Notes: a model not told the origin generated them from the sequence alone. A DNA stretch of 63,611 nucleotides, filler included, from Rhabdomonas costata (GCA_019059605.1; 50 parts of 50 records of this genome joined end to end with filler, not necessarily neighbours in it); one strand, 5' to 3'; numbered from the whole stretch's first letter, positions 17,223 to 63,611 are shown. Made by a program: numbers and translations.

Positions 17223-17417
17223 ATGGCCGGGAAGACCTGTGTTGTGGTTGGTGCTGGAGTTGGTCTTGGAATGGCCATCGCCCGACGGTTCGCCCGGGCG
17301 GGTTACCAAGTGTGCGCCACCCGCCGCCACGGTGAGGAGGCCAGAAAAGCCGCGGACGCCCTGCAGCTGGAGATTCCAGGCAGCAAAATTGTGGGCTTTG
17401 GGGTGGATGCTCGCAAG
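17223..17417 (+). CDS. Short-chain dehydrogenase/reductase, first exon
   Basis: MAGKTCVVVGAGVGLGMAIARRFARAGYQVCATRR...GVDARK has the Rossmann GxGxGxG motif, ARRFA and DAR. Coding character stops at ~17417-17420. Confidence 0.88.
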
Positions 17418-19117
17418 GAAATGCCCCAACCTTCCCCTTCCCACGCCTTACACATACTCGCGAGTACACACACGTGCTTTCATTTTGAGTAGGTGTACTT
17501 TTGTTGACCCTAATTATGAATCAGCGACTCTACGGTCTCATACTTGATGTCAAAGTTACAATTAAAAACTTCATCAAAACGGTCTCTCTCTCTCTCTCTC
17601 TCTCTCATGGTCTCTCTCGCGGAACGTTTGTTTGGCTCATTCCATTGTCAATTGATCACACCATCACTGGAGGGGATGGAACATGCCCAAGTTGCAAACA
17701 GGTGTCGCATTTCTAGTGTATTTTGGAAAACACAAANNNNNNNNNNNNNNNNNNNNNNNNNNNNNNNNNNNNNNNNNNNNTTAATTAATTAANNNNNNNN
17801 NNNNNNNNNNNNNNNNNNNNNNNNNNNNNNNNNNNNGGGTTGGGGTGTGTTGGGTGCGTTTTTTTTTGTGGGGACAGTGGATAGCTGACGATGCTTGAGG
17901 CCCACTTCCGAGAAATTTCAACAAGTAGCAACGGAGGCTCAGCGCAGTTTAAGGGGTGATGGGGTTCCGAGGGTGTTTCTCACTGGCATACCACCAAAGT
18001 GCGTGTGAGTGGTGGGGGCGGCGGCGATCGTGGTGGCTGTAGAATTTCTTTTGAAATCCTCAATTTGAACGGCTTGGGAGGGAATAATTATTTTTCAAAC
18101 GGCGCACTGAAAAGGATACCCGTAGACATGGCTTTCTCTCATCACACGCAAGCAAAATGGGGGTTTTCAGGAACTTTTCAGCCTTTTTGGATAGTAAGAT
18201 TAGTGTCATTACATCTCGTCTTCAATGTTCCGTAGCGTGTGCGAGTATACGACCAGCCATCACTCGTGGTCCCAGGAATGCATCAGGGTCAATCATCATG
18301 TTTACTGGGCCCCCAGGTCACCACCGGAGGTAGAGAGGTGCACCTAGGGTATACCCCTCTCGTGAATTCCTGCACCCCACCCCTCAGCGTATTTTGCTCA
18401 GAACCCAGGGTGGGAGGGTACCAAGTCCCAAAGTACGTGGTGGTCGCCCTCGGCGGGCTCCGTTTCGCGTATTTGGTATATTTGGGTTAGTCAGTTTTTG
18501 CAGGATCATCACTTCACCTGGAACTCTCACTTTTGGTATGACCAACAACACACTACAGCAGGGTTTTCTGCAGTTGCCATTGAACCGGTGGAAGCGGCAC
18601 TAGTAGTCTGTCCTTCGATTAGAGGGCCGAAAAGGGCGATTGCCTCGGCCTTTGTGTGCGTGCATTTGTCATCCTGTACGCCCCGTTCTGATGTCAATTT
18701 TCATCCCCTCTTGTAAATAGGTTGCACGACCACCTCATCCATTCTCTGCTGCTTCCTTACCTCTCCCTTACCTCTCGTCGTGCCCTCGTCGTGTTCATCC
18801 TTCACCTCTAACATAGTTTTCCCCCTCCCCTCTCTTTTTCCAATCACTTCTCTATATTTGTACCAGCGTCGATGCCACAATCATGCCAATCTGTCCTTCA
18901 CGTGATGATGGGTCCATGTGGCCAAGCCGTCTCTGCATTTCGCAAAGGTGCCTGTTTCTCTGCGCTTTTGTGCGGATTCATTTATAACAGGCCCCCATGG
19001 CACACCCCCCANNNNNNNNNNNNNNNNNNNNNNNNNNNNNNNNNNNNNNNNNNNNTTAATTAATTAANNNNNNNNNNNNNNNNNNNNNNNNNNNNNNNNN
19101 NNNNNNNNNNNTTTTTG

Positions 19118-22826: not shown

Positions 22827-25800
22827 CAAAAACANNNNNNNNNNNNNNNNNNNNNNNNNNNNNNNNNNNNNNNNNNNNTTAATTAATTAANNNNNNNNNN
22901 NNNNNNNNNNNNNNNNNNNNNNNNNNNNNNNNNNGGTTTGTTTGCGAGGGGTGTTTGTTTTATTTGCTCGGGTTTAGCGTGCGGGGTTTTAGGCGCCTCG
23001 AACCAGGGGCCAAAAGCAAGGCCTAGGGTTGAGGCGGTTTTCTAAGCTGCGGGACCCGCTTAATCCTTCCGCATTGGAAATGCGATGGGTTTTCGTCCGC
23101 GAGGGCGCCAGGGGGAAACACAGGGAATATCATTCGGGCGTTTTTTTTTTTGACATAAGGCTCGGACGAACGGGAGCACAACGAAGGCGGCGCACGCGCC
23201 AAGGCGCGGGCCCGAGAAAACTCGGGCAAGACAACCCGACCAAGAAAGCACGGGGGTGACGGGCGCGAAAAAAGAAGGAACCGTCACTAATTCTCGTGGC
23301 GTGGGGGAAGGGGGGCCAAACACGCACTACACCTTGGGGCGGTGTGCTGTGGCGCGTCCTGGGGCTTCAAGTGCCGCCCACCCGCCACACACACTCCCAA
23401 ACACACGCTCACTCGCTTACTCTGGAAACACTTTATCGCGCCGCAGCGACAGTCTGCCCCTTGTTTCCGTGCGCTAGAACTATGCCAATGACTTGCGCCT
23501 CTTCCTCATTTCACTTTATCTCCGAATTTCTTTGCATCACGGCAATATCCTCGGGCACCTTTCGTCATTCTTTGCTTTCCTGCTTTTCCCTTTTCGTTGA
23601 CATCCATTTCTGCCACAGCGGCCCCAGATCCATTGCGCAGGTGCACAACCAGCGCCCTTGGATGCTGAATTTTGTCTCGCGCCGGGTTGGGCGAGAGCGC
23701 AGCAATACCTTCGCCCTGCCACAGGACATGAGTTCACAGCAGCCAATACCTTCGCCCTCCGAATTGCGCGTCGGCTAAAGTGCACGGCCATCCACCGCGC
23801 GTGGAAATGCGGTAGGTTCATAACAAACACCGCACTTCAGCACGGACACTCAGTGAAGCTCATCGCTCACGACGTCCTTGCTCTCCACTGCTCACCCAAT
23901 CTCTCGCTTTGTATTGATGTCGAGCTCTTCTCACCCCCCCTGACAGGCTATTCGGCAAGGGCTAAAGGAGAAGCCCTCTACCCCATGTAAAACTGATCGT
24001 GTCCAGAGAAACCGCATGATAAAAAAGAAGGCGGGGTCGTGGCCATCGCAGCAACTGCGTCGATGTTACTGGAGGAGCCATCCCAAAGCAGAAGGGCTCC
24101 CCCAAACCCNNNNNNNNNNNNNNNNNNNNNNNNNNNNNNNNNNNNNNNNNNNNTTAATTAATTAANNNNNNNNNNNNNNNNNNNNNNNNNNNNNNNNNNN
24201 NNNNNNNNNGTGGTTGGGTTCAAACCAATGTGTTGTGTGTTTGTCATTTCCAGGAAGTTGCTCTGGTTGTTAACAGTTTCTTCGTGGGACATGGATTAAT
24301 GTGACGTGATAGTTGCTGTGAGAACGGTGCCCGTTTAAGTAGTGTTTAGTAATTGGTTTTGGTTGTGTAACCGCGTTTTTGTTTATGTGGCATTTTTCAT
24401 TTATTTTTCTTCGCAGTCGTCAGACAGCGAGTAATTGTCGGCCTTCACCCTTGGCACACGTATTGCATTCATGCTGGCTGGGGTATTTCTCTTCTTTTGC
24501 CTGTGGCCGCTGCGAGGATGACTGACCGCACCACTGCTTTAAGACATGCAAACTGTTGCTGACGCAAAGAAAGCGAACTTGAACTGAACGTGAACTGAAT
24601 GTCTTCCAGCTTGAATTGAATTGTGGATTTATGTGTGTGCGCCTAGTGAACACGTTGTGATCAATTTTCAGGTTGTTAGTTATATTTACGTCCTCGCAGT
24701 GCACACGTGACACTTGTATGATTAGAGTTAACCGAATGAATACCCTGTGACAGTACCCAATAAAGACGCCAGCTCCATTGAAAACTTTTTTATCAAATTT
24801 AGACATAACGTGTTGTAGTTCCGTGAAATATTCACATGCGTCCGTTTTTTCAAGTACATGGACTCATTGCGTGTTAATCCGCGTTCACAATGCATAAATA
24901 AGAGCTTACTTTCACACCATATAACAAATGAACCTTATTACTTATCCTATGTGTACCCAAAACTAAGCAAAAGCCACATACGTGGACATTTCCGCAAAGT
25001 AATTTACATTAGTTTCCTGTAACAAGGCTTTTCATCGTTCCTCACAAAGTTGCACAGGTTCGAAGTTACGCTTCAAACTGCCTTGAATCGTACGCAATTC
25101 GTGCGTAACTGCGACTAACTAGTCAGGACGTATATTATTTGAAATTGCATGAGTTTTTTTATGCGTCATGCTGATCCAAGAAAATGTTTAGCGTGCTTTC
25201 CATTGCGTGGTTGCAGTCATTTTCCTCAGAAAACAACGCCGACCATCTACAGAGCCGTATACAACATCTCTTTGAGAACAAAACTGAGCGCGCAGACAAT
25301 AACAAACCGCATACACCGTAGCGCATAACAAGTGCGCAACTTTGACTAATCAAAAGGCACGCATTTTCCACCCCCACAANNNNNNNNNNNNNNNNNNNNN
25401 NNNNNNNNNNNNNNNNNNNNNNNTTAATTAATTAANNNNNNNNNNNNNNNNNNNNNNNNNNNNNNNNNNNNNNNNNNNNGGTTGGGGGGTCCAGCCTGCG
25501 TGGAGCGTACCGATGTGCCGGGCCACGACCGCTGCCAATGCCGCAACGGCGGGGCAGCGCCCTCTTCCCAGCACTGCAGCACCACCGGAGTTTTGGGGGT
25601 CACTCGGATGTCTCTGCCTCTGCGGTGTGGAAACTACCACAGCCGTGGCTGCGATTGGATTTCTTTCTTCTTGAGTTCGTTCGAGGCGAGAGGGCTTGCG
25701 GCGTGTGGAGATTGTAAATTTCGGCGATGCCTCTCTCTCCGATCATGTCCCTCGTGCTTTTTGGGGGGCTGCTATGTTAGAGACCGCCTGCCCTTCCACC

Positions 25801-27841: not shown

Positions 27842-28130
27842 CTAGGAAAATCCCCGAAAGGGAAAGGGTAATATCGCTGTTTGAAATGTGGGTTTCGCGT
27901 TGAATTGATGAGCCGATCTCCAAAAAACANNNNNNNNNNNNNNNNNNNNNNNNNNNNNNNNNNNNNNNNNNNNTTAATTAATTAANNNNNNNNNNNNNNN
28001 NNNNNNNNNNNNNNNNNNNNNNNNNNNNNGTGGGTGTGGGGAGCGACTGAACCACTGCATTTAGGAGGGATGACGAACGTAGTGAGACATCACGATATCA
28101 AGGGCTATCTTCAGCATCTAGGAGGAACGA

Positions 28131-28696
28131 GCGCAGCGAGTGACGACCTGGTGAACTAAGCGAGGAGCGCAGCGACGAAGCGTTATGAAGGGGCCCCATG
28201 AGCGCATAGCAAATGGGGATACAGGGCGAAGAAGCGCAGCGACTGAGGACGGAAAGAATAGAAGGAGGCATTCGAGGACCCGAGAATGCCGACATCTTCT
28301 TCTATCTTCTACATCTAGGGAGTGAGGGAGCGTAGCGACCTCACGACCAGCAAATACACCAAGGGGCCCCATGGCATTGACCGCAGGGAGATGACATTGG
28401 GATAGAAGGCATTGGTGACTGAGCGTAAGCGCGTAGCGGTGGAGCGAAGGAACCATCATGCATAGGGAGTGAGAGACCGGAACGTAGTGGAGGGATCTCA
28501 CGACCGGCATAAACACAAAATGCCCCTACGTTACTCCTTAGCATCTCTCTGTAAGTGCCCCCAAGTCGAGGAGCGTAGGGAATCAGAGTAATGCATCAGG
28601 TCTCAAAAAGGCATCCGTGGAAGGTCACGAATGATGGGTGCGTAGCGATCCATCCGTAGTAGTAAAGGCATCAGGTGGAAGGTCACGCAGCGAAGC
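28131..28696 (+). repeat. Degenerate internally repetitive region with seven GCGNAGC motifs
   Basis: GCGNAGC at 28131, 28167, 28234, 28330, 28431, 28640 and 28690; also duplicated GGGGCCCCATG, CTCACGACC and AAGGCATC..GTGGAAGGTCACG blocks. Confidence 0.7.
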
Positions 28697-31600
28697 GGAT
28701 TAGAGGGTCATCTTACGCATCTTTACACCCTACCCTTACTCTCTCAACGCTGGTAGAAGGCGTAACGTCATGCCCTACCCTACACCACATGGCCTCAACC
28801 CCAGACCTCCTCAGAAACACGTAGCCCCAAGACACCAACACCAGCATGCACTGTAGAAGCACTGAAGACACAAACCCTCACACCCACTGACCTTGAGACC
28901 CTCCGACGCAAAAACGCACACCCCTCGAACGTAAATCCACGCACCCAGCCAACATCAACACGTAACACCGTAGTACAGCCGTCAACACCAACACGCTCAC
29001 CCTCCGAACCCAACATCACGAAACCCTCTGACCCTGAAACGCGAAAACCACCACACGTCACACCTCAAGGCCTCAACACACTCACAACATCACAGCGTAG
29101 TACTCAGCTTGGCATCGCAGAACTCACACACTCCCCACCGACTTCAACGCATCGACCTTCCACGAAACACGAAACGCACAGCCCCTCCAACTCAACCCCA
29201 CCATNNNNNNNNNNNNNNNNNNNNNNNNNNNNNNNNNNNNNNNNNNNNTTAATTAATTAANNNNNNNNNNNNNNNNNNNNNNNNNNNNNNNNNNNNNNNN
29301 NNNNTGTGTTGTGGACCATTGGACAACGAACAGTTTTGTTATGTTTGTCTCCAATCAATGGTACCTGGTTGCCTTGACTCTGTCCTGGTTACACTTTTTC
29401 CTCCCTCCCCTCCCCTTCCCGCACATATCCCCTGCATCCTTGCCTCCTCAGTTGAACATTCCCTGGACATTGTTCCTGTCAGTCCTCTTCTTGTAGAGCA
29501 GTAGTTCCGCCATTGTTTTCCATGTTCTCGTTTCTCCCTCAACCGAAGGAAAATGAACGCCTCCCCCCCACCATAATATATCGTGGAAAAGCTATATCTT
29601 GTGAAATCTCCTGCTGCAATTTGTGCGCCACCTCGTCCCTTGAGTAAGGGATGGTCTTTGGACTGTTTCAGTCGGTTATTATTGTAGTCGGAGAACTGAG
29701 TGCAGATAAAACTCTCATTGTGCTGTGCTGAAAAGTCTTTAATTGAAACGAACCAGACTCAACGGCGGGGAACGAGCTCGCTCTACAAAATAAACGTGTG
29801 CTTTGCAGCTGCCACGAGCCCTAACTTAATTAAGAAGGAATATATTTGGAAGGGGCGAGGAGAAGGTCATCAACAGCAGGACTTTCCCTTTCTGCAGACC
29901 TGCATTGCTCGACCTTCAAAATTGTTCCGCCATCATCGCATCTTTCGGACAGAATCGACTGAGATGGTTTGAAACAGCCGGAAGGGGCTCCGAAGCTCCG
30001 ATTTGAACGAACGGAAATTTAACTCCTCAATGTTTTGAAGGCCGATTCCTCACATAGTAATCTCAAAGAAAACTCTCGGTTTTTGTGCGCTTGTTTTCTC
30101 ACACCTTTCTTTGTCATCTGCATTCTCTTTGTTCTATAAATCTTCGTGGTTGGTCTCGTCGCTTGACGCTGCGAAGTTGACTTTAGGCTCTGCCTCAAAC
30201 GCTCTTTTTTAAATTGGTTTTCAGTTGCCATACTCTCTGGCTCCTGGTTTTCCGGTGATGGTCGTCGTGTTCCTCATTGGGGTCGTGCCCCCGTCGCGCT
30301 TCCACACCGTTGTGCCCGAAATGTTTATGGCAGTGCCGAGCGGCCCCCGGAACCCACTACCACCACCACTACGACCACCGAAACGAACAGCACAGGATCG
30401 AATGCAGGGTGGGATCCTGCTTTGGATGAACTCCTCCCGTAGCGTCGCCCACCACCACCGCCCAACGGACCAACCACCCNNNNNNNNNNNNNNNNNNNNN
30501 NNNNNNNNNNNNNNNNNNNNNNNTTAATTAATTAANNNNNNNNNNNNNNNNNNNNNNNNNNNNNNNNNNNNNNNNNNNNGGTTTTTGGGGACAAAACTTA
30601 ACAGCTCACCCTACCGGGGGGGGGGGCATAAATGCACTAGCGCCTAAGAAAACCAACCTCAAAAGCAAAAACAGAAAAAGAAAACAGTGTATTCCCTCCC
30701 GCAGCAACGAAACCGTGCAACCCTGTGCTTGCTCGATGAAGCGGAGTGATATCCCAGAACATCGTTGCGGTACCACGTAACTTGGGCACACACACGCTGT
30801 TGAGCCTGGGCATGTTAGGTGGAACGAAGTTGTCAGGAGTGGGGGTGGCCGCGAAGAGAATACGACTACCGCCAGTAGACGAGTAACAGTGGTGTGTTGC
30901 TAAAAACGCATCGAATCGATGAAGTTTGGACACTATTTCTATTGGTGTTGGATAAAGCCGGCACCCGCTTGAAAGAGTTGATTTAGACGTAAAACTTACG
31001 GCGCTCGCTAAGGAGATGCACAACCTATGCAACACAAAAAAGAGCAATCACTTCGCGGGATCTAAATGGTGCCCCGGGACCCCGACTACACAACGCATTT
31101 CACCTGCCTTGGCCCCCAAACCGATGCCAGACCAAACAAACTCACCTTGGGGCACTTGCGTCACTCCTTAGCCACCTACAAGGCCAATAAACTCACGTCG
31201 CAACTCACGGCGCAATGCCCTCTAACTCCCTACGAGACAAAAACCTTTGCTCGGGAGCAAGCGCAACGCCCACTCACTAGCACCTTCACCAGCTGCGCGG
31301 CCCAAGACATCTCAGACCTTCCGAGATGTCTTTTTAGGGCAATAAATCGTCCTTAAGCCATAGTCGGATTCTGCCATTGAAGTAGAGAGGGAGGGGGTAC
31401 ATCTGCATTAGCAGTACCAACTTTATACAGCATTAAGCGCACCCTCGACTAAACTTGTCTAGGAAGTTCGTGAGCCCGACAGCTGGGATGTAGAATACTG
31501 CAGGACTCGTCAACTGCATTCATTCAAATGAAATCAAGCTAGCTCTATTTTGTTTCGAATCTCGGAAATCAGGGGATTTGCAGAGTAATGAAGACCGGGC

Positions 31601-32514
31601 ACGAAAGTCAGGGAGTTTCATTCGCCACTTAGAGGAGGATAATTTGCACTAAACCTGAGCGAACGCAGAAGTCCGCGCTCCCAGATAGCGAGTGGGCCCC
31701 CAATGGGGTTGAGACCCCAGGCGTAGCCAGGCAAACCAAGTAGCAGCCACCACANNNNNNNNNNNNNNNNNNNNNNNNNNNNNNNNNNNNNNNNNNNNTT
31801 AATTAATTAANNNNNNNNNNNNNNNNNNNNNNNNNNNNNNNNNNNNNNNNNNNNTGTTGGGTTTGTGTGGTGTTGTGGTGAAAGGAGAGAGTGAGAGTGG
31901 GGTGAGTGTTTAGAGCGCCGAGCGGGTGGTAGTGGGGAGGGGCATTCTGGTTGCGCCATGCGTGTGTGCGCAGAAAGGGCTTTGACATATCCTGTCTTGG
32001 CATCCCTGAGGTAAACCAGAGTCTGCGAACTCCATCCTCGAGGCAATTAAGACGAACCAGTGTATGGTGACATCCGCGGACTACCAGACAAAGGGGAACT
32101 AAAAACGTCACGTGAAAGAAACATGGCGCCAGAATGCCAGAAGGCCACCTTGAGGGCCCTTGCGGAAAGCCTTGCCGTGCAGCAGGAGGGCATCCCAGCT
32201 TCCCCCCGCGGGAGCCTCAAAGCTGTCAGCACCAGCCGCAGCACCAGCCGCCGTCGTGGGAGAGGGCCCGGCTCCGCCCCCAACACAGAAGGGCAGCTTG
32301 ACCTTCCGTCGCGCGCGCAGCAGCCGCAGCTGCTTCAGCCGTGCCGTTGCAGAGACTAAGAAAACGGAGGGAGTGGGGAGGTAATAGCAGTCTGGAGACG
32401 GGCATGAGGACCGCTACTATTCCTAACAGAAGGTGACAAACACGCGGCCAGGAGTTGTGATTCACTATACAATCTCATCTTGCGCTCATCTTACCTTGTG
32501 TGCTGGCAGTTGCC

Positions 32515-32695
32515 TGACCACTGTAGACTGACGGACGCACGCGCAGTTGCCCATACGGGTTTCGCGAGAGGTTCCGTTGGAGCGAATGACGCCGTGGGGT
32601 ACCGCTCACCGCCGAACCTTCCACATATGGTAACCTCACTTCTGCCCCAGGGGTCCCGGCCATTGTCGCGCATCTGCTCTTTTCCGGCGGCTACC
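32515..32695 (-). repeat. Copy of an unclassified dispersed repeat (homologous to 54203-54318 and 54595-54678)
   Basis: Reverse complement reads ccccacggcgtcattcgctccaacggaacctctcgcga...gcgcgtgcgtccgtcagtctacagtggtca, versus 54595 ccccacggcaccgttcgctccaacggcacctctcgcga...gcgcgtgcgccagtcagtccccagtggtca. Confidence 0.8.
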
Positions 32696-33129
32696 TGCAT
32701 TGCTCCATTGCTGCTCGGGTCTCTGAGAGGAGACTCCACACTCCTTCCTTGGGGGAGTGGGGCCTTTTGAGCGACCCTTTGAGCTTTCCCTTCGGATGGG
32801 TGAACGGGCAGCACCGATATGTGCAGCTGTTGCCGTGCCAGCACATCATTTGTGTATGTGTGTGTGTGTGTTTCGCTTCAACCAAGGATGACCACCGGAA
32901 GCTCACCGAGCCAGAGTTGGTGGAAAAGGACTCGGAGTTTGTTTCCGACTCCTCATTGCGGAGGCAGTGCTCGCTTTCTGCCTGGCAAGCGTGCACCACG
33001 GTCCAGTTTCATGTCGATGCGTCGAGACANNNNNNNNNNNNNNNNNNNNNNNNNNNNNNNNNNNNNNNNNNNNTTAATTAATTAANNNNNNNNNNNNNNN
33101 NNNNNNNNNNNNNNNNNNNNNNNNNNNNN

Positions 33130-34304
33130 AAAGGTCGAGAGGATGAGCCAAAATTGGAGAAAGGATATAGATCGGCTCTGAATGTGCTCCCTGTTGAAGA
33201 CAAAGGCATTCGGAGGCCGCTCAGTCCATCGGCGGAGGCAGAACCGGCGCCTCCCCTAGCGAAAACAAATTCCACCAAGGAAGAGAACTATGCGTTGGTT
33301 CAGAGCAGGCAACGGTTACGGGAAACGTTGTTGCAAAGCACGTCCTCTAAGTTGTCAGAAAGCGCGAAAAAGGTCCGACAATCAGGTGAAGCTCCGGTGT
33401 TGTCCGTGATAACGGAGGGGAAGGATGGCCCTTTCAAAGGTAAGTTCTCGAGTGAACGGTCTGACTGATTGTACCCAAGATAAAGCGTTGCTTTGTGAAT
33501 GGAGTGTTGTGACAGAAGATATTGCGGAGAATGCTTCATTGGAAGAGTGGTTAGAAGATCGGCAGGAGGTAGCCGTCAGCAGCATCCGTCTTGGCAAGGG
33601 AAGTTGCCCGGTACCGCTTTTTGTGCTGCCATTCCAAAAAGTGGGCAAGGAAGTGGATGAGTTCGTCGGGACTCCCCCCGACCCTCCCCCCTCAGCCGCT
33701 ATTGTTTCTGCCGTTGTGGATTAGGAAGATCCAAGTGAGAGCTCTGTTGGACTCAGGAGCGTCGGACTCCTTTATAAGTGAAGAGGTGGTGCAACGTTTG
33801 AGGATACAGCTGTACCAGCTTCAGCAGAAGCTTACAGTGAGAGTGGCCAATTGGGAATGCCTCCCTGTGACTCATTTTGTGAAGATCGTGGGAAGGTTGG
33901 GTGCAATGCCGGTAGCGCTATACTTGAGAGCGATAAATACGGCGATCCCGGTGGTACTGGGATACCAGTTCTTGACTCGGCTACAACCACAGATTGATTG
34001 GAAACGCCGTTTTGTTAAAGTATGGAAAAGCGGACGGATATATGAGATTCAGGCGTTACCAGCTATAGATTCTTTCCGCATCACTTGTCCCACTACGGGC
34101 ATGTTGGAGGTGGGGCGAGACAGCGGACAGGCCAGCGACAGGACCACCGATCAGCCCCAGTTTCCTTTGGTGAGCGCGCCCCCCCATGGCAAGCTCAGCA
34201 GGGGAGGGTAGAACACCCAAACCTGATTTTTTCAGCCAGGTGGATAAAGCGGCCGTGGTACCAGTGGAGACAGAGATCGGGTTTGGGTGTTCTACCCCCC
34301 CACA
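33130..34304 (+). mobile_element. Ty3/gypsy-like LTR retrotransposon fragment with retropepsin (protease core ~33690-34070), frameshifted upstream
   Basis: PLLFLPLWIRKIQVRALLDSGASDSFISEEVVQRL...VRVAN...PVVLGYQFLTRLQPQIDWKRR has the LLDSGA active site and LG-x-x-FL-x5-IDW tail; no introns. Confidence 0.88.
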
Positions 34305-36954
34305 NNNNNNNNNNNNNNNNNNNNNNNNNNNNNNNNNNNNNNNNNNNNTTAATTAATTAANNNNNNNNNNNNNNNNNNNNNNNNNNNNNNNNNNNNNNNN
34401 NNNNCCCGCTTTCCCGAGATGAGGCAATCGATGCAGCAGGGGGGGGGCGATCAAGTGCACAGTGGGACTAAGGGGGAGAATGTGTAAGGAAACAAGGAGC
34501 CCGCATGAGGCGGTGGCACGTTTTTGGGAGCTCGTGGCGTGCCATTTGAAAAAGCACAAGAGCGTGGTAAGGCTATTATAAGGTGGTACTTCACCAGCAT
34601 TTTGTACATGATATGCACTCGTACTTGGGGTTTGCCAACATGGCATCCCAATAGGTCGCACCCAAAAAAGCAACTCCAAGCTTCCTGTGAGACGTTCATG
34701 GATTTTCATTGCAAGTTCTGGAGGTAAATAGTGCTGCAGTAATGAGTTTACCCACATCTTTTTGTGCTTGTGTCACTTACGCCAACCTTGAAGACAGTGG
34801 CGTGTCATTTGCCAGCTAAACATACCAATATGGGCTCTGCGATGCCACCGTGAGATATAGAGCTTGCAAATAAAATACATGTAGAGTCGATCCACCCAGA
34901 GTGCATTTGACCCACTGCAATTCAGAGGCTGTAGGCGTGCGTGACACGGCATGGGCCGTGGAGGGGCTGGAGCCTGGAGTGGTGGTGGATAGTGTTGGGA
35001 TGGGGACTAGTGGGCCTGCCGGGGAAACCGTGGCAGAAGTGCAGCTCGTCGCGGCGGCGGCGTCCTCGGCCTCACCGAAAAGCAACCAAGCACAGGTCCG
35101 GACATCCTGTTGCATTCACTACCTCTCCTGTCCCAGCTGCCGTTTTGGGTTCGCGGGTGGGCAAAAGGAACGCCAGCAAACCGGCCTGTTTTTATACTTT
35201 CTGATCTCCAGATGCAACCCACTGGTATTTTCTTGTGGCTATCTGCGGCTCATTTGTCATTTGATGTTCATGCACCAATGGTGTCCGAAGTGGTCCCAGT
35301 CACCCAAACCAAAGGTGGTCGAACCAGAATGTGACCGTCAGTTTCTTGATTTCAGATGAGACATATTCGATAAAAGGAACTTCTCGCAAACATCCAGCAG
35401 GCACTGTCGTGCAAACTTTACGCTCCTGATATGTGCCATATCTTCACCCCACCGATTGTCCCTGCAACTCCAAAAGTGAGTGGTTAGACGCTTCCACAAA
35501 AAACGTCATTTGGATTTATGGAGATAGGTTGCTTGCTTTTTTTCTGAACCCGACCCGCCAAACACACAACCACACAAAANNNNNNNNNNNNNNNNNNNNN
35601 NNNNNNNNNNNNNNNNNNNNNNNTTAATTAATTAANNNNNNNNNNNNNNNNNNNNNNNNNNNNNNNNNNNNNNNNNNNNGTGGGTTGTCCAGCCATGATT
35701 CGGAAGAATGTGCCTTAAAATCCGACGTTAGCGTTACTGTTAGTGTTGTTGTACATTTTTTAGCGTGTGACGTTTAGTTTGGCTGTTTTTCTGCGTGTCA
35801 GACTACGTCTATCCGCCGAGCCTCTTACGTGCCTCCTATTTCTTGCGGGTGGTCGTGGTTTTTGGGTATTTTTGTCTTGTTTTGTAATTTTGACTGTTGA
35901 TTCTCATTGTTTTCGACAATGTTGTGCGGTTTTTGGTGCTGTTTATTTCTACTAGTAAAACTTGTGACCGTTATCGTTGTTGGTCTTTGCTGGTCTTGGT
36001 GTCGTTTTTTGTTTTTTGGTTTCCGAATTGGGTGAAGGAGTTGTTTGCTTGGTCTTGAATTTTGGTTCTTAGTTTTGGTTCCAGCATAGGTAGTGAGGAT
36101 TTTGTGTTGGAAAGACTCTTGGTATGCTGGGTGGTGTGTGATTGCGTGTGTTGGCTGGTGTTTGTTGGTCTGCTGGTCATTTGGTGTCAGATTTTGCGTT
36201 GCTTTGGTTTGTGGTTTTGGGGGTAAGTAGAGGTAAGTAGAGGTAAGTGGATTTTTTATGCTTGATTGTTCTTGGCATCGGTTGAATTAATGTACGGCGC
36301 GAAAAAGCGGAGCGCTGGTAAGAAAATACAGCAAACCAGCACCTGAAACGAAGGCCAATTGACCTCTTGCTTCGCCAGTTGCACCGAGGACGTGCCATGA
36401 CCGTATGACAATTCAGATTTACATCTTGCTTAACACCACTAGAAGAATCTCAGAGTCTCTACAAGGCACACAAGTAACGCGGTCCTTTCGATGTGATCAT
36501 GTACTAGTAACTGTTGGAGCTACATTTGAAGATGCTGCAAAATCTTGCACCAGTTCAGGTTAGAAGATAACACAAAGACGCAGTCCTCGAATTTAAGGTA
36601 GGTGGCGGCAACGAAAAAAACATGAGCAATTCGTACTTTTACCATCCCATTTCTCTCAAAGCAGCATACAACTCCTCATAAAGCTTCGTTAACTCAAATA
36701 AGGTCCATTGAATGGCTTAGATGCTGGCGCTGAGCGCTCGGAGCTTCAGGACCACATCCACAGCACATCGCGCTGCAATAAGCGCATTAATAGAAATGAG
36801 CCCTATAGTCTCTCCTCAGTAATTGGATTAAAATGCTCTACGTACAAAACTCCCNNNNNNNNNNNNNNNNNNNNNNNNNNNNNNNNNNNNNNNNNNNNTT
36901 AATTAATTAANNNNNNNNNNNNNNNNNNNNNNNNNNNNNNNNNNNNNNNNNNNN

Positions 36955-41941: not shown

Positions 41942-43565
41942 CCACCACCCNNNNNNNNNNNNNNNNNNNNNNNNNNNNNNNNNNNNNNNNNNNNTTAATT
42001 AATTAANNNNNNNNNNNNNNNNNNNNNNNNNNNNNNNNNNNNNNNNNNNNGATAGTTCAAAACTGGGGGGTACGGAAAAAGTTGGTGAGTAGCGGTAATG
42101 GGGGTGTGGGTACAATCAGATGAAAGACTGTATGGTGAGAAGTGGACTGTATGATGAGAAGTTGGAGGAGAAGTTATCCGCTTTTGTACGTGCAGAAACA
42201 ATGCTTGGTTCTGATGCTCATTGCCATCGGCTGGCGACTTCACTTGCGGCAGATTTGGGTTGGATGCTCCATCTACAGTTTTTTGTCAAAGAAACTTTAT
42301 AATTTTCACATGATCGGAATTTGTAAGGCAGATTTTCCACATATGGTTGCCAAAAATTCCAAAAAATTTCAGAATCAGTGGCAGTGTCCAACTATACGCC
42401 AATGACAATGACCATCACAATCCTCTTCCAGCACTGTCTTTCAGAACATTTGGCTTTAGAGCCAGTTAAGTATTGGTGGAGGGAATACACTAATAACCAA
42501 TTTCTGGATTAACCAAAGCAAAATCTGGATAACACTAAGATTTGAAGGACCCACTTGCAACCATAATTGGATGAAGATTCCTAAGATTAAAAAGGCACAT
42601 GGCTATGATTTTTCAGGACGACATGTTCATTCATTCAATGCTAAGAGAAAATGAAGACGCAAAATGGTGCGCGAAAGTGGATTGCCTTACAGTATTCATA
42701 CAGGAGACCAGATGTCTTTTAATTGTGGTGTGCAACAAGGTTAATAAAATCAGCGCCTTTTTTCGCGTTCCACATGCAGGCAATTGATCCTAGTTCACAA
42801 CAAACCAGACAACGAAACATTTCATGCGGATGATCTTTCTCGCCAAAACGCAGGAATTTATTATGGCATTTATCAACCACTAGCAACGGCACAATCGGAA
42901 GTAAAGACATAGGCCCATACTTTTTTAATCTTGTTTAACACAGTTACTTACAGAAGATAATGGGGTCAAGATATAGAAATGGCTTGAGAATAAAAACTTA
43001 GACTGTGAGTTTGCTATGTACTATGAGAGCCGCACGTGCAGACGAATTCGGAAACATCAATATGGCAAACTGCAAGTTTGCTGTTGGTCAGTACATCTTA
43101 ATTTAGAAGCACAACAGAAACGAGCTTGGCGTAATACTCACGCAACAGGTGGCCATGTAGTCTTATAATACCAAAAAAAATATCACGCGAAATACTTTTC
43201 AAACTGCCTTTGAGAACCACAACCNNNNNNNNNNNNNNNNNNNNNNNNNNNNNNNNNNNNNNNNNNNNTTAATTAATTAANNNNNNNNNNNNNNNNNNNN
43301 NNNNNNNNNNNNNNNNNNNNNNNNCCCCATCGCAACAGCACCAGAAGGAATTAAGCGGCAAAAGGCAGCGCCCTATACAAAAATAAACACTGAAGGTTAT
43401 CCACTGAATCCGGCACGGCAGTACCAAATCCCTGAAAAATGCACTCACATGGTTAAGTGGGGCTATTTTCAGACAAAAAGACCACCTATTTGCCTAAGAA
43501 CTTTCTCCCAAGAACCGCCATATCCGCACCAGATGAGAAGGGGGGGGGGAGTTGAGGGGAATCGC

Positions 43566-45393: not shown

Positions 45394-46680
45394 GTGTGTG
45401 AGTGTGAGTTTCCTCACCGCTCGTGTGATTTCCCCACCGCCGAAGTCAAAGCTGAGTACTGCGTGTTGTTAGATGCGCACAAGGCCCCCGAAGGATTGCC
45501 GTGCGGCACGCCCCATTTTGTTTGCGGACGGGCTGGTTTGCTAGGGTGTTCCGACGGAGAAGCTGCCTATTTTTCGAGTTTCTGAGTTTTTGACTAAATT
45601 GTATGCGCGCACACGCACACACTCACAGACACTCGCACTCACTGAATCACTCATTTGCGATTAAAGGCCTGTCAGCTGTTGGAAGTATATTGGCATGCAA
45701 AGGTCCAAAAGATGCCACCCCGGGCCCGTGGAAACGTGGCTCATTTGTAGTAACTGGTCACCCACCACCCCCNNNNNNNNNNNNNNNNNNNNNNNNNNNN
45801 NNNNNNNNNNNNNNNNTTAATTAATTAANNNNNNNNNNNNNNNNNNNNNNNNNNNNNNNNNNNNNNNNNNNNGGGGTTGTGGCCAGCACGCCGGTGCATG
45901 CCCCGCGCCTACGTTTTGAACTCCTTCCGCTGAGTTGCCTGAGTTGCGGGAGAATATGATCAACCTTGCGCTTACCCGATGTTGTAGGAAAAATTTGGGA
46001 CCTCTCATCCAGTGACAAGGACGACCTCCAAAAGTTAAGTATGGGGTGTACCATTATCGTACAAAAATGGGGCTTTTGGTTGTTTCGGCAGGATCGATTT
46101 GTGGGGTCAGTGAAGTGCTAGAGGTGATAATGTGTTAAACGGCTTGTGCTATCAATTGGTGCTTAGGGTAGTCGGATTGTATTTGCTCGACAACGTCCTG
46201 TCGCGGTGCGTTCGTTTGAGTTGGCAGAGAACCGCCTGAAACTGCTCTTCATAATTGCATTGCAAGCGCGATTTTTGGGATCAAGTTGGGTTGGTGGCCG
46301 GCTGGAGGGTTGGTGGAGAATGGGTTGGGACTCCTCCGTGAGGTGAAGGAGCATATCTCCTCTTCCCCAACTTCGCTCCGAACATCTCCGATCTCTCTGA
46401 TCTTTTGTCCTTTGGGCCTCTCTGTTGTGATGACACCACCACCAGGCTTTCGGCCGTTTTTTTTTTGCGAGCCCCCCCCCTCCCGTTGGTTCCTGGGGTG
46501 TTTACGAGTCTCAGCAGACGGTGGTTGCGTATTCCAATTCGAATATGGCCTCTTGCAGGGAGTTGCATGAAAGCTTCGCATATCCCATCGAACGCCTTTT
46601 GTTCGGCACTGCTTGCTCATACTTCTTGGCTCTATGGAAAGGGAAGAACGCGCCTGGCTGCTGTTCTTGCCACACTTCAG

Positions 46681-46803
46681 ATTGGCTGCCGGGCTCCGGA
46701 GATGATCGCCGTGCGCGTGGGTGCGCGGATCGATGAGAGAGTGGACATATGGGCAATCGGCACGCTTCTCTACCATGTCTGCTTTGGGAACCTCCCGTTT
46801 GAG
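46681..46803 (+). CDS. Ser/Thr kinase subdomains VIII-IX, NAK (AAK1/GAK/STK16)-like
   Basis: ttcag|IGCRAPEMIAVRVGARIDERVDIWAIGTLLYHVCFGNLPFE|gtcacc; RAPEM...I-x-E-x-VDIWA-x-G-x-LLY-x-x-CF-x3-PF. Confidence 0.85.
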
Positions 46804-46999
46804 GTCACCTGTGCCCCAATATTTTTCTTGATACTGAGCGGTGGCTTGTTTGAACAGCATTCCGCTGAGTTATGAGGAGAAGATCACGTGCAGCCACCCC
46901 CCAAACACACACACGTTTTGTGCGTGCACCAACAAAAATTGGCATCTAGGGGCGGTGGAACAGTACGGGTCGAACCTTCTTTTAATGCCTTAATCGTAT

Positions 47000-47049
47000 C
47001 CCTAACCCTAACCCTAACCCTAACCCTAACCCTAACCCTAACCCTAACC
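47000..47049 (-). repeat. (CCCTAA)8 telomere-type repeat at contig end, in interstitial orientation
   Basis: Perfect CCCTAA array running to the contig end. The C-rich strand points 3' outward, opposite to a real chromosome end. Confidence 0.9.
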
Positions 47050-49694: not shown

Positions 49695-50868
49695 TTGGGG
49701 GATGATCTGGAAATCCTACCAGCTCGAAATATTTACTCAGCAACTCTGCCTCCTCTGGATTCCCCTTGATCATCAACTTATCTGGCTTCATCGTCCGCAC
49801 TGCCGACTTCAGTCTCTGCACTGCCTGTCCGAACGTCGTACCCGCCTCTCCAGGGCTGAACCTCAATTGGTGAATGTTGTTCTCAGCGTACCACCAACAA
49901 CTCCGATCCACCTCGTTAATCACTCTGGATGGGTCATCAAACTCGGGTCTGGATAGGTAATGTTTCGGACAGATCAGGGGGTGCACGTCATAGACGGCGA
50001 AGTAAACGTTGTCTCCCTCTGGAACTCTGTACGCCCACGCTAACTCTCTCGGTAACCTCACTGTCCAACGCGGCTTCTTCCCCCTCATATGAAAATCTGC
50101 AAGAGAAACAAACTGTTCGAAGGTCCACCCTTGCCTGGGGTTACTGAAGTTCTTCCCACACCAAAACGGGGGCGAGTCCCAATTCGCACACAGATAATTC
50201 AAAGTACTCCCTGTGTACACCGCTCCTCTGCCTTTTATCCACGTAACGGCCTGAGCATGTGGAACTCTGGATTCAACCACCTCACTCGAGTATTCTATGA
50301 ATTCCATATCAATCACCATAATCCTCTCTGGATTGTCTAACACTGGGTATTTACAGAACCACCTCACCATGTCTGCCTCTTCTTTCATTTTTCTCTTGTC
50401 CGTATTATCAAACCTACCTCCAGCACATGTCTGCCACTCTCCTCCTTCCCCATCAACTGGATGTACCTCTGTATCGTCTTCTTCTCCAACTCCGCTTGTG
50501 GATGATGCCGGGGACGCTGGCACGACTGCTCTGGCAGCGGCCAAGTCCTTCGGCGGCACACACGGGTACCCCACTTTATAAACACACCCTGTGAAAATAT
50601 TCAAGGGCTTCAGCCTCATCACCACACTCTGTGGAGCTGGGGTCTCCTCTCTGGAACAATCCATTCTGAGAAATAACTTCTTCCCCAATAACTCCTCTGT
50701 CGGCTCATAGTCCATTACTCTACCTCCCCTGCCGTCTGTGTGATCCTCTGGACCGCAAACCTCGCAACCTCTAACCTCCGCGCTCTGGAGCAAAGTAATC
50801 CTCCATGTCTGGATTCGAAAACTGAACTCCGGCTTCACTAACTCTTTGACTGCCTTCTTGATGGCTGG
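49695..50868 (-). CDS. Intronless ORF open across the whole contig (>=391 codons), putative DEDD-family nuclease of viral/Polinton-like type
   Basis: No stop in 1,174 nt. ExoI-like IMVIDMEF (50322-50299), then W-x3-NNIHQLRFSPG...F...L...LMIKGNPEE. The ORF is certain; the family call is inference. Confidence 0.7.
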
Positions 50869-53154: not shown

Positions 53155-53743
53155 GTCTGTATGGATGCGTGTGCGCGCGCACGTATTGAGTGAGAAGGTA
53201 TGCATTTCAGCATTAAATACGATGAACGCACGCGTTCCGTTAGACACACCACTGAATAGCTTAGCGCTCCTCCCCCCGGGATGCCTTTCTGATGGAGCTG
53301 GACAACGCTCCTTTTCACACTGCTGCTCATCGCTTCCTGTTGTGTTTTGCAAAATTCTGACCCCAAGGACCGGCCACGCAGCGTTTTGGGAGTCCTGTTG
53401 TATATACAACAACACANNNNNNNNNNNNNNNNNNNNNNNNNNNNNNNNNNNNNNNNNNNNTTAATTAATTAANNNNNNNNNNNNNNNNNNNNNNNNNNNN
53501 NNNNNNNNNNNNNNNNGGGTTTGTGCTTGGGCTAGATTTGCAACTGTTCGTTGTATTCCATCACGCCCCCCCCCCCAACAAAATCGCCTCCAAGGCCTTG
53601 CAAGGATGCAATGTAGACGGTTCATTGCTCGCCATCACGACAACGATGGTGGTGTCGCACCACTGAATCCGAACCGCCGGTCACTGGAGTTAGCTGAGAA
53701 TCAGTGGGCGCAAGGTTTTCTCTGGTTTTTGAACATCCCTAAG

Positions 53744-53900
53744 ATGTGCGGAGATCGAGCGGGACAACCGGACGTTGGTGCGGAGGATGACGGAGATTAT
53801 GAGCCGGTCCGCGCTGGACACCCACAACTCCGTGACCTACCGCAGCCTGAACCGCGGGCAGCGCCGCAAGGAGCTCATCCGGATCACGGCAGAGAACCAG
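53744..53900 (+). CDS. CFAP97/Hemingway-domain ciliary protein exon
   Basis: CAEIERDNRTLVRRMTEIMSRSALDTHNSVTYRSLNRGQRRKELIRITAENQ matches IERDN..L..M...SLN...R..EL.RIT.ENQ. Confidence 0.85.
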
Positions 53901-54202
53901 GTTTCTGGTTTAAAATCAGATTTAAATCGGGTTTAAAATCAAAATCTATCAATTGTTTTCTTCCGATTGAAGGATTTTTTCCCCCTGTATTTCTAGTAAT
54001 CACAATCGATGGGGCTGAGTTCCCAGCCCTAAGTCTGCCTCACTCTCGCCAGAATGACGCTAGACTGGGCTAACAGACATGTGCACCGACCCAACAGCAA
54101 CAAGCTCTTGCTGCATCAGGTACGAGCGGTTGTTGCACCATGTGTGACCGGTTGTGGATCCCCTTCATCCCACAAAAATGAAGGACGGAAGGAATGGAAA
54201 AT

Positions 54203-54678
54203 TGGAAGCCGGTAGAAAAAGGTCGCTGGGCGACGAAAGCCCGACACCCGTGGGGCTGGAGGGAGGTTGCCGTAGGAATGCTCGAAGGTGGCCGATACCC
54301 CACGGCACCGTTTGCTCCGAACATAGATGTGATTAACCAGGTTTCCGAACTTGCGTGCGCCGGCCTTTGAACGCGTGAAAAGGTACACGGAGTCTTCTTC
54401 AGGTTTCCCATTGTATACGGCAACCCGCGTCAAAGTGCGGGTCTGCCTTCTGCTGTGATTCTGTGGGGTATTCACAGTGGTCCCCCAGGCAACAGCCAGC
54501 CCGGCTATGCGTCCAACACACACACCCACCCACACCCACCCACACACCCACACACACACACACCCACACACACACATTGCAAGAGGGCACCGTTCCCCAC
54601 GGCACCGTTCGCTCCAACGGCACCTCTCGCGAGCACCCGTGGCCAACAGCGCGTGCGCCAGTCAGTCCCCAGTGGTCA
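54203..54678 (+). repeat. Two partial copies (54203-54318, 54595-54678) of the dispersed repeat at 32515-32695, separated by sequence containing a CA-rich microsatellite
   Basis: Shared core ccccacggcaccgtt(t/c)gctcc; direct alignment with the reverse complement of 32515-32695. Confidence 0.75.
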
Positions 54679-54821
54679 CCACACCCCAAAACNNNNNNNN
54701 NNNNNNNNNNNNNNNNNNNNNNNNNNNNNNNNNNNNTTAATTAATTAANNNNNNNNNNNNNNNNNNNNNNNNNNNNNNNNNNNNNNNNNNNNACTCGTGT
54801 TCCTGTTGCGAAAGGAATACC

Positions 54822-62337: not shown

Positions 62338-63611
62338 NNNNNNNNNNNNNNNNNNNNNNNNNNNNNNNNNNNNNNNNNNNNTTAATTAATTAANNNNNNN
62401 NNNNNNNNNNNNNNNNNNNNNNNNNNNNNNNNNNNNNTGTTGTGTTTAGGTTGCTGTTGGTTGCTTGCGTGAATTGCTGTGGGTTGCTTTTGACTGGGGT
62501 TTGTGTATGAGTCTCGGGATGTGCGTGGGCTGTACTGGATGTATCTGAAGGTGTGGTGTTGGATGTAGGATGGTGTACTGGGTATTGGATTGGATACTAT
62601 GTGTGGGTTGGTGAATTATTTGCGCTTTGTAGATGTTGGGAGGTAATGCATGTGGTGTGGGTGATGCTTGTGGTGTCCTGGGTGGTGTTAATGTTGCTGG
62701 ATGTGGGGTTGGGTGTGCGTGCTGTGGTTTTTGGTGGCTTTATGTGCATGGGTTTTTCTAAAACTTACGGTTACTAGGGCTTGAGATTTTGGTTGCTTGA
62801 TGCTATGGAAGATCAAGCAACGGTTTCCTGCGTTTATGCATTCGGTGATCAAGGGTTATATAGCTTTTACTATCTTGGGATACCATGGGTGGGGTTGGTG
62901 TGGGTGTGGGTGTGGCCGCGAGTTACTGGGACTTTGGTGTCGGTGTGTGTATCTGTTATGCTACTGGTTTATTAGCTACTTGTAAGCATTCGTGTCATGG
63001 TTTCAATTGCGTTGTTGCTTGGTGTGGGTTGAGCTGCATATTGGGTCCTTGGTGTTGTGTTTCGGTCATTGCTCATAGATTGTTTTAAATGGTTCTCTGT
63101 GTGATATGTTTCAGTTCCGGTTTTTCTGGTGTGTGGTGTATGCTGCGTGTGTTGTTGGTACGTTGTGTGAGATTGCGTGCGCATCGGATGCTTTGGGTGG
63201 TGATGAGGGGTCCTAGACAACAAATCCGTATCACCAAGATCCGCAGGACTACATCCAAGCCACAGTGGGCTACCCACACATGATCGCACCTGTCAATACT
63301 GCGCCAAGTTGGTCACTTAATCAGATAATGTCCCAGTGGAGCACTGGTGGTCGTGTAGCTTGCCGATGGGAGGTGTAAACGTAGGGCTGAGGATTGGTTT
63401 ATCCAGAAGTGATGGTAAGTCACACGCTGTCCACTACTGAACCTGTTGTTGTATAGAGCTGGGAATAGTGTTACAAGTATTGTAATAGTGTAGTAATTGT
63501 ATCAGAAAGGACAGACTACCTGGTGTAGACGAGGCTCTTGGCTTAGTTCTTACTTAGCCATCTTCCTGCGACGATGCGCACGCGACGAACAACCAACACC
63601 AAACCACAACC

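Follow-up and report, generated by a model that had tools for sequence, protein, structure and literature searches.

What kind of gene fills an entire contig of a eukaryotic assembly, is interrupted by no stop codon, and matches nothing that has been named? The question is raised by one contig in a window of 63,611 nucleotides (the whole stretch of DNA analysed here) from Rhabdomonas costata (GCA_019059605.1). The window is laid out as 50 contigs of 1165-1177 bp each, separated by runs of N and TTAATTAATTAA spacers (n=49). Its contig at 49695-50869 (1175 bp) is open reading frame throughout and has no flanks. The answer that we prefer, and to which we assign about an even chance, is that this contig is an internal open piece (391 of roughly 600 codons) belonging to a single copy of a repeated eukaryotic gene family that has not been described before. 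Half of the protein would be a DnaQ-like nuclease, acting in an accessory role for a mobile or endogenous viral element.

The frame runs on the minus strand (49696-50868) for 391 codons with 0 stops, and its product is here called P0001. Each of the five remaining frames of the contig carries 8-26 stops, and the longest open stretch in any of them is 108 aa. From base composition, the probability of 391 sense codons is about 3e-10, and none of 2000 mononucleotide shuffles reached that length (maximum 306). Thus, the frame is real, and lies far beyond chance. A reading made earlier from the sequence alone had singled it out as the only frame open across an entire contig, which a count over the window bears out: 1 of the 50 contigs is open at full length, the runner-up stretch being 268 aa. 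That sequence-only reading had also called the ORF intact. The word is apt for the 391 codons, which hold no stop, but for those codons only. The frame has neither a start nor a stop, which makes it an internal piece of a longer gene.

The motifs from which the earlier reading started can all be located in P0001. CEVC is found at residues 35-38, IMVIDMEF at 183-190, WWYAENNIHQLRF at 325-337, FGQAVQRL at 346-353, and LMIKGNPEE from 365; the gap of some 130 residues that it had placed between its two main motifs measures about 135. A CxxC near the N-terminus, which it had listed among the features of the protein, is indeed present as CEVC, but its first Cys is Ala in 3/3 relatives that cover the position. 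The CxxC is therefore not a feature of the family, and a zinc knuckle at this place is ruled out as a family trait. What is conserved within residues 1-110, in one close subfamily, are the blocks KPEF, MDY, KLFLR and GYPCVPP, together with C38, C71 and C103; C35 is not. Table 1 collects the features of the frame.

Table 1. Features of the open frame and conservation of single residues. Conservation was counted in an HMM-guided alignment of 25 rows, using only the rows that cover each column.
Feature	Coordinates	Strand	Remarks
ORF P0001, 391 codons, whole contig	49696..50868	-	no start or stop; internal gene piece
N-terminal region, residues 1-110	50539..50868	-	common to one close subfamily; pLDDT <50
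Linker, residues 111-154, Ala/Ser/Pro-rich, then acidic	50407..50538	-	poorly conserved; no confident model
Predicted strand beta-1, residues 183-194 (IMVIDMEFIEYS), Exo I-like D187-x-E189	50287..50322	-	model and alignment
Insert of ~70 residues (195-264), beta-1 to next strands	50077..50286	-	SEVVE and G-S-T-L blocks conserved; 199-217 low confidence
Best-conserved family block, residues 265-295 (PRW..RLPRE.AW...G..VYF.VYDV)	49984..50076	-	predicted beta-hairpin beta-2/beta-3
Helix NEVDRSCWWYAENNIH plus QLRF, residues 319-337	49858..49914	-	model and alignment
Helix, strand KLMIK, helix (EEAELLSKYFELV), residues 346-383; Exo II-like position	49720..49833	-	model and alignment
D187			kept in 10/10 relatives
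E189			kept in 7/10 relatives
E192			kept in 8/9 relatives
E196			kept in 7/9 relatives
E199			kept in 7/9 relatives
R274			kept in 12/14 relatives
E275			invariant, 14/14 relatives
W278			kept in 12/13 relatives
D321			kept in 10/15 relatives
H333			kept in 9/13 relatives
K368			kept in 10/11 relatives
N370			kept in 8/11 relatives
E373			kept in 10/11 relatives

Searches against named families do not recognise this protein. Pfam returned nothing for P0001 at E<=10, and PHROGs, NCBIfam and PADLOC gave no match. The PDB chains, searched by sequence and by profile, gave only noise at E>0.2, and the ESM Atlas gave no usable match for either the whole of P0001 or residues 155-391. A word-indexed protein search found 2 matches among shorter proteins, and none at near or longer lengths. 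When the 25 members of the first alignment were themselves scanned against Pfam at E<=1, they touched 7 unrelated families, each once (E 0.017-0.22), and these were judged to be chance. One identity considered on the way was METTL14, whose C-terminus the relative P0019 weakly resembles (E 0.26-0.6). It was rejected; the family does not conserve the K-P-x-E block that was matched, and no methyltransferase appears among the structural matches listed.

Relatives do exist. Against 1.84 billion representatives, phmmer found 23 at E<=1e-3, 6 of them at E<=1e-10; all are short fragments (50-292 aa) that share 30-62% identity with P0001 over the matched part. The sources of 20 of the 23 were checked, and all 20 are JGI/ENA metagenome contigs of 544-4334 bp whose proteins carry only the name "hypothetical protein". 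P0001 is, then, a member of a protein family that is recognised by no profile library searched. Scanning metagenomes gave three short loci, L001, L002 and L003, whose flanks are uninformative; the only sizeable one is 1.1 kb upstream in L001. In a single frame, these loci align with 316, 334 and 212 residues of P0001 at 51, 48 and 43% identity, respectively. The prokaryote genome contigs scanned held 0 relatives, and the other contigs of the window held none at either the protein or the DNA level.

The fragments also show how much of the gene lies outside the contig. In the relatives, the protein continues upstream by about 85 residues (P0006) and downstream by at least 100, the latter including a segment that reads ...HPPI..CPR.RV.KP... 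and an H-C-x3-E motif that lies some 80 residues past the KGN..EA block. Overlapping fragments, when pieced together, suggest a full protein of about 600 residues. One of the copies carries additional DNA: residues 1-37 of P0006 map to L001 113-223, residues 40-154 map to 1128-1511, and the roughly 900 bp between them (224-1127) have no counterpart in the contig that encodes P0006. This segment may be an insertion in that copy or may be intron-like; a simple GT..AG splice, placed by eye, left the frame broken.

Copies of this family decay. L001, L002 and L003 contain 2, 3 and 1 internal in-frame stops, all TGA or TAA, and in several of the fragment proteins similarity to the family breaks off suddenly at one end, the behaviour of frameshifted copies. 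The stops align with C, G, V, D, I and G of P0001. Such a mixture of residues indicates nonsense mutations rather than a recoded stop, and reassignment of the stop codons in these relatives is thereby ruled out.

The pattern of substitution adds a second element. L001 and L002 share a metagenome of origin and 89% identity. Across 243 codons, codon positions 1/2/3 differ between them at 28/17/11 sites, and of the codon differences 5 are synonymous and 47 non-synonymous. Here, there is no excess at third positions, which means that purifying selection has not operated between these two copies. When the copy in the window is compared with L001, in contrast, the differing sites by codon position number 95/94/204 (in 303 codons); with L002 they number 113/91/214 (in 316 codons). 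The third-position excess in these comparisons, taken with the stops in the relatives, implies that the protein is kept by long-term selection while single copies decay. This is the usual pattern for a transposable or endogenous viral element; an expanded host family with pseudogenes could give the same. Many decaying copies with past coding selection, the generic mark of such elements, were found for the relatives only.

What might the protein be? An AlphaFold2 model was made from P0001 with 24 relatives, mostly fragmentary (25 sequences), and has a mean pLDDT of 59.5 and a pTM of 0.55. Its confidence is unevenly distributed, with residues 1-153 below 50 and residues 155-391 mostly at 70-93. 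The second of these parts begins with a helix (155-171) and a strand (183-194), followed by a partly low-confidence stretch with short helices. It continues with a long hairpin (265-281 / 287-295), three helices (301-305, 319-331, 346-360), a strand (364-368, KLMIK) and a helix (371-383), after which the contig ends. The element order of the DnaQ-H fold is given, in the portion of PMC2628886 available to us, as beta1-beta2-beta3-alpha1-alpha2-beta4-alpha3. The P0001 model follows this order, save for some 70 residues that follow strand 1, until it stops at the contig end. Residues 155-391 are thus predicted to form an RNase H-like core with its elements in the DnaQ/DEDD order; the complete core of that superfamily runs beta1-beta2-beta3-alphaA-beta4-alphaB-beta5-alphaC.

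The earlier reading had regarded a large insertion as an unusual architecture, and the model agrees, inserting about 70 residues where beta-1 would lead on to the following strands. The earlier reading had also proposed a Foldseek search with such a model to look for a DEDD-type fold. Against the PDB, nothing was found at E<=1e-3, and the top rows, at E 0.1-0.5, belong for the most part to RNase T, oligoribonuclease, CAF1, DexA and polymerase-alpha exonuclease-like domains. Against BFVD, phage exonucleases were matched with a probability of 0.97-0.98 and an E-value of about 0.02. The same BFVD search returned two further matches, the ichnovirus ORF S5DRE3 (probability 0.98, TM 0.49 by target) and Q4FEW2, a viral protein that carries no name (0.97). 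The sole relative that spans the whole domain, P0019, gave an unusable model (pLDDT 46.9).

Motif positions point in the same direction as the fold. The D-x-E of Exo I, expected on the first strand, is present as D187-M-E189 within predicted strand 183-194. Judging by the ends of the superpositions and the residue numbering of the superposed enzymes, D187 presumably lies near the position of their first catalytic Asp. At the junction of strand 364-368 and helix 371-383, which is the Exo II position, stands K-G-N370-P-E-E373, with a Glu at N+3. The Exo III position, for which DEDD enzymes have H (or Y)-x4-D, lies beyond the contig end and is seen in relatives only. Three independent relatives reach it, and read H-C-x3-E (P0013 and P0019) or P-C-x3-E (P0023); P0026 was left out of this count, being 99% identical to P0019.

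The known proteins of closest kind are the DnaQ-like (DEDD, chiefly DEDDh) enzymes, which include Pol III epsilon, the PolC exonuclease, Exo I, RNase T, oligoribonuclease/REXO2, 3'hExo and Cas2-DEDDh. The predicted core of P0001 appears to share their element order up to the Exo II helix, its first strand bears D-x-E, a conserved acid opens the helix after strand 4 in the model, and it is with strand 1 of those enzymes that the superpositions start. Further, the H-x4-E near the C-terminus in the relatives has the same spacing as the H-x4-D of five E. coli DEDDh domains. The differences are also clear. In those five domains, Exo II reads N-x3-D with its Asp at N+4, whereas the acid in P0001 is a Glu at N+3. 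The P0001 family, unlike the DnaQ-like enzymes, has about 70 residues inserted after strand 1 and an extra N-terminal region of at least 150 residues, and it has no detectable sequence similarity to them.

This last point was pursued with hhalign, using a family profile built on residues 150-391 of P0001 and five mutually divergent DEDDh domains of E. coli K-12 picked with Pfam RNase_T. The probability was 0.1 and the score 12.5, no better than the controls, which gave the same probability (reversed profiles scored 9.4 and 10.4 and RNase HI scored 12.2); both profiles are shallow (Neff ~3), which limits the power of this negative comparison. Thus, the view that the protein is a DEDD nuclease draws its strength from the predicted core, the D-x-E on the first strand and the large insert, but it found nothing in Pfam or hhalign at the level of sequence. 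It is fold and motif position that would place the P0001 family in the DEDD superfamily.

On these grounds, the C-terminal half of the protein (from about residue 155) may be described as a very divergent DnaQ-like (DEDD-type) nuclease domain of RNase H fold. It would carry D187-x-E189 on strand 1, then an insert of about 70 residues peculiar to the family, E275 on the hairpin, and N370-x2-E373 at Exo II; its Exo III part, H-C-x3-E in relatives, would lie past the end of the contig. If these residues are catalytic, as their positions in the model suggest, the acidic ones would hold two metal ions, and the domain would trim or hold the 3' ends of RNA or DNA during replication of an element. The protein would then serve a mobile or endogenous viral element, either as an accessory nuclease or by binding the 3' ends of nucleic acids.

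A second comparison is with Maelstrom (MAEL). As described in the accessible text of PMC4408791, the fold of Bombyx MAEL is of DEDD type and includes a structural zinc, bound by E137 (on beta-2), C290, H293 and C302. There, R306 occupies the position of the last DEDD acid, so that the pattern is C290-x2-H293-x8-C302-x3-R306. In an amoeba MAEL and in the Lassa nucleoprotein, both the DEDD and the ECHC residues are present and the proteins are active exoribonucleases (same portion of PMC4408791). The arenaviral ExoN adjoins MAEL in a structure-based tree, according to the part of PMC7968707 consulted. In the P0001 model, the strand that comes after beta-1 bears a Glu that is invariant in the family, and this residue, E275, may be the counterpart of E137 of Bombyx MAEL. 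The relative P0013 has C-x2-H-x10-C-x3-E, with a His directly before the last Cys, which is near the MAEL spacing of C-x2-H-x8-C-x3-(acid position). The Cys-His pattern is complete in 1/3 relatives that reach the region (P0013) and partial in P0023 and P0019. At E<=1, none of the 25 family members matches a Maelstrom or arenavirus nucleocapsid family in Pfam, as far as that library includes them. Neither protein is found among the fold matches listed, an absence that is not evidence against a relation.

The zinc pattern is therefore a lead rather than a result. The boldest form of it would be a new exonuclease clade, combining DEDDh catalytic residues with an E-C-H-C zinc site of the Maelstrom/arenavirus type, carried by a mobile element of a microbial eukaryote, related to the ancestor of Maelstrom and the arenaviral ExoN, and a candidate vehicle for its transfer. 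We regard this as a long shot.

Nucleases of DEDD fold are, of course, already documented on mobile elements. In the text of PMC5408684 that we could draw upon, a DEDDy-type exonuclease is encoded as ORF3 by the Juno and Vesta LTR retrotransposons of bdelloids and by Athena/Terminon elements, its motif being altered to DEED; Vesta2/5 have a Maelstrom-like Cys-His-Cys motif; and the rotifer element ORFs show strong HHpred homology to enzymes of RNase D type (DEDDy). A DEDDy domain also lies inside some transposases of the Dada DNA transposons (PMC3706591, from the text accessible). The P0001 protein would resemble these in having a DEDD fold as the accessory gene of a repeated element. It is unlike the Juno, Vesta, Athena and Dada ORFs in that its family is unrecognised by profiles, and in that it looks DEDDh-like.

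Is the gene, then, part of an element? Codon usage bears on this. GC at codon positions 1/2/3 of the P0001 ORF is 0.52/0.44/0.56. Among the host-type exons identified by Pfam in the window, GC3 is 0.88 for dynein heavy chain, 0.74 for protein kinase and 0.62 for short-chain dehydrogenase; in the ORF of a retrotransposon protease on another contig it is 0.57. These samples are small (38-110 codons), and within them the P0001 ORF groups with the retrotransposon ORF rather than with the host genes. The earlier claim that the frame lacks the GC3 bias of host exons thus holds up. A mobile or endogenous viral origin is plausible, since the relatives are multi-copy, decayed and unannotated, and since the codon usage is unlike that of host exons. 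It is likewise plausible that the P0001 gene itself sits in a mobile element. This much of the viral or mobile origin first proposed survives, but its Polinton/Maverick label finds no support.

The alternative that fares best against these data, which we still hold to be unlikely, is that the family belongs to the host. Here, P0001 would come from a lineage-specific expansion of divergent DnaQ/MAEL-like nucleases, with live members and pseudogenes, working in cellular RNA or DNA processing. MAEL-type nuclease domains of protists do expand in this lineage-specific manner while keeping their DEDD residues (portions of PMC2628886 and PMC4408791). Long-term purifying selection on the protein is equally what a host family would show, no transposase, reverse transcriptase, integrase or capsid gene and no repeat ends were observed beside any member (the loci being short and their flanks uninformative), and the contig falls within the range of the other contigs in CpG o/e and GC. 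Against these stand the low GC3, the trinucleotide use of the contig, which ranks 6th least typical among the 50, and an uninterrupted frame of 1.17 kb, where the identified host-type exons sit in open stretches of 92-177 aa. Further, many decayed paralogues on short metagenome contigs, absent from named proteomes, make up the usual picture of a repeat.

The trinucleotide data might also be read to mean that the contig comes from a contaminant or symbiont and not from the main genome. This would leave the identity of the protein unchanged, and would say nothing about the host. The correlation of the contig with the rest is 0.50, against 0.7-0.9 for most contigs, the remaining contigs of the window show no relation to it, and its relatives with checked sources are all from environmental metagenomes. 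However, its GC (0.508) and CpG o/e (0.68) lie inside the window range, five other contigs are more atypical, and k-mer use is expected to set a contig that is all coding apart from contigs that are mostly non-coding. We consider foreign DNA improbable.

The original proposal, an accessory nuclease of a Polinton/Maverick-type element or of another DNA virus, integrated or co-assembled, now appears very unlikely: the ORF has no introns and a codon usage unlike that of the host, its best high-probability BFVD matches are viral exonucleases, and endogenised polinton-like viruses have reportedly been found in protists (PMC12721341), but scans of 2.9 million IMG/VR viral contigs found 0 relatives, PHROGs offers no match, the BFVD matches at E ~0.02 are phage enzymes and not Polinton proteins, the relatives are decayed genomic copies, a flankless contig offers no pPolB, integrase, ATPase or capsid gene to link, and no source was found, at the level of literature titles, for the "W-x3-N-x-H...KG-x-E" signature attributed to Polinton accessory ORFs.

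The rest of the window provides the setting. The host-type exons are at 731-1006 (+; dynein heavy chain N-terminal region 2, E 3e-36), 17160-17489 (+; short-chain dehydrogenase, E 3.7e-9) and 46342-46872 (+; a protein kinase fragment, E 8e-5). From these, the main genome is eukaryotic, with dynein heavy chains and coding exons of high GC3. A perfect (CCCTAA)x8.3 array of telomere-type hexamers lies at 47000-47049, the very end of the kinase-exon contig (45873-47049). The retrotransposon protease is a 212-aa open stretch at 33573-34208 (+) that matches Pfam RVP_2 aspartyl protease (E 1.4e-7), has a D-S-G-A motif, and represents a fragment of an LTR retrotransposon; nothing connects it with the P0001 ORF, which is on another contig. 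The five contigs that are more atypical in trinucleotide use than the one discussed here are 24210-25379, 42051-43224, 35680-36854, 62438-63611 and 28030-29204. Three of these have low GC (0.40-0.44), and they could be AT-rich repeats, organelle or foreign DNA. Contigs 31855-33029 and 53517-54692 have in common an inverted 89-bp segment (83% identity) and a weaker one of 118 bp, suggesting a short dispersed repeat. Rfam found nothing over the window.

Were the family a host gene family, or the contig a contaminant, P0001 would be an ordinary hypothetical protein. If the preferred reading is true, and the gene is an accessory nuclease of a mobile or endogenous viral element, the meaning is different. 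The family would then be one unknown to profile libraries, its members being only unannotated metagenome fragments and the present assembly. Among the DEDD nucleases of mobile elements, it would form a highly divergent branch in which strand 1 is followed by an unusual insert. Little is understood of the accessory nucleases that retroelements and transposons are known to carry, and an intact copy would be something that can be expressed and assayed. The candidate Maelstrom/arenavirus-like Cys-His pattern in the relatives would bear, in turn, on the origin of those nuclease domains. The value of the locus thus lies mainly in an unrecognised family that has one apparently live copy, and in the putative Maelstrom/arenavirus-like pattern that this family may carry.
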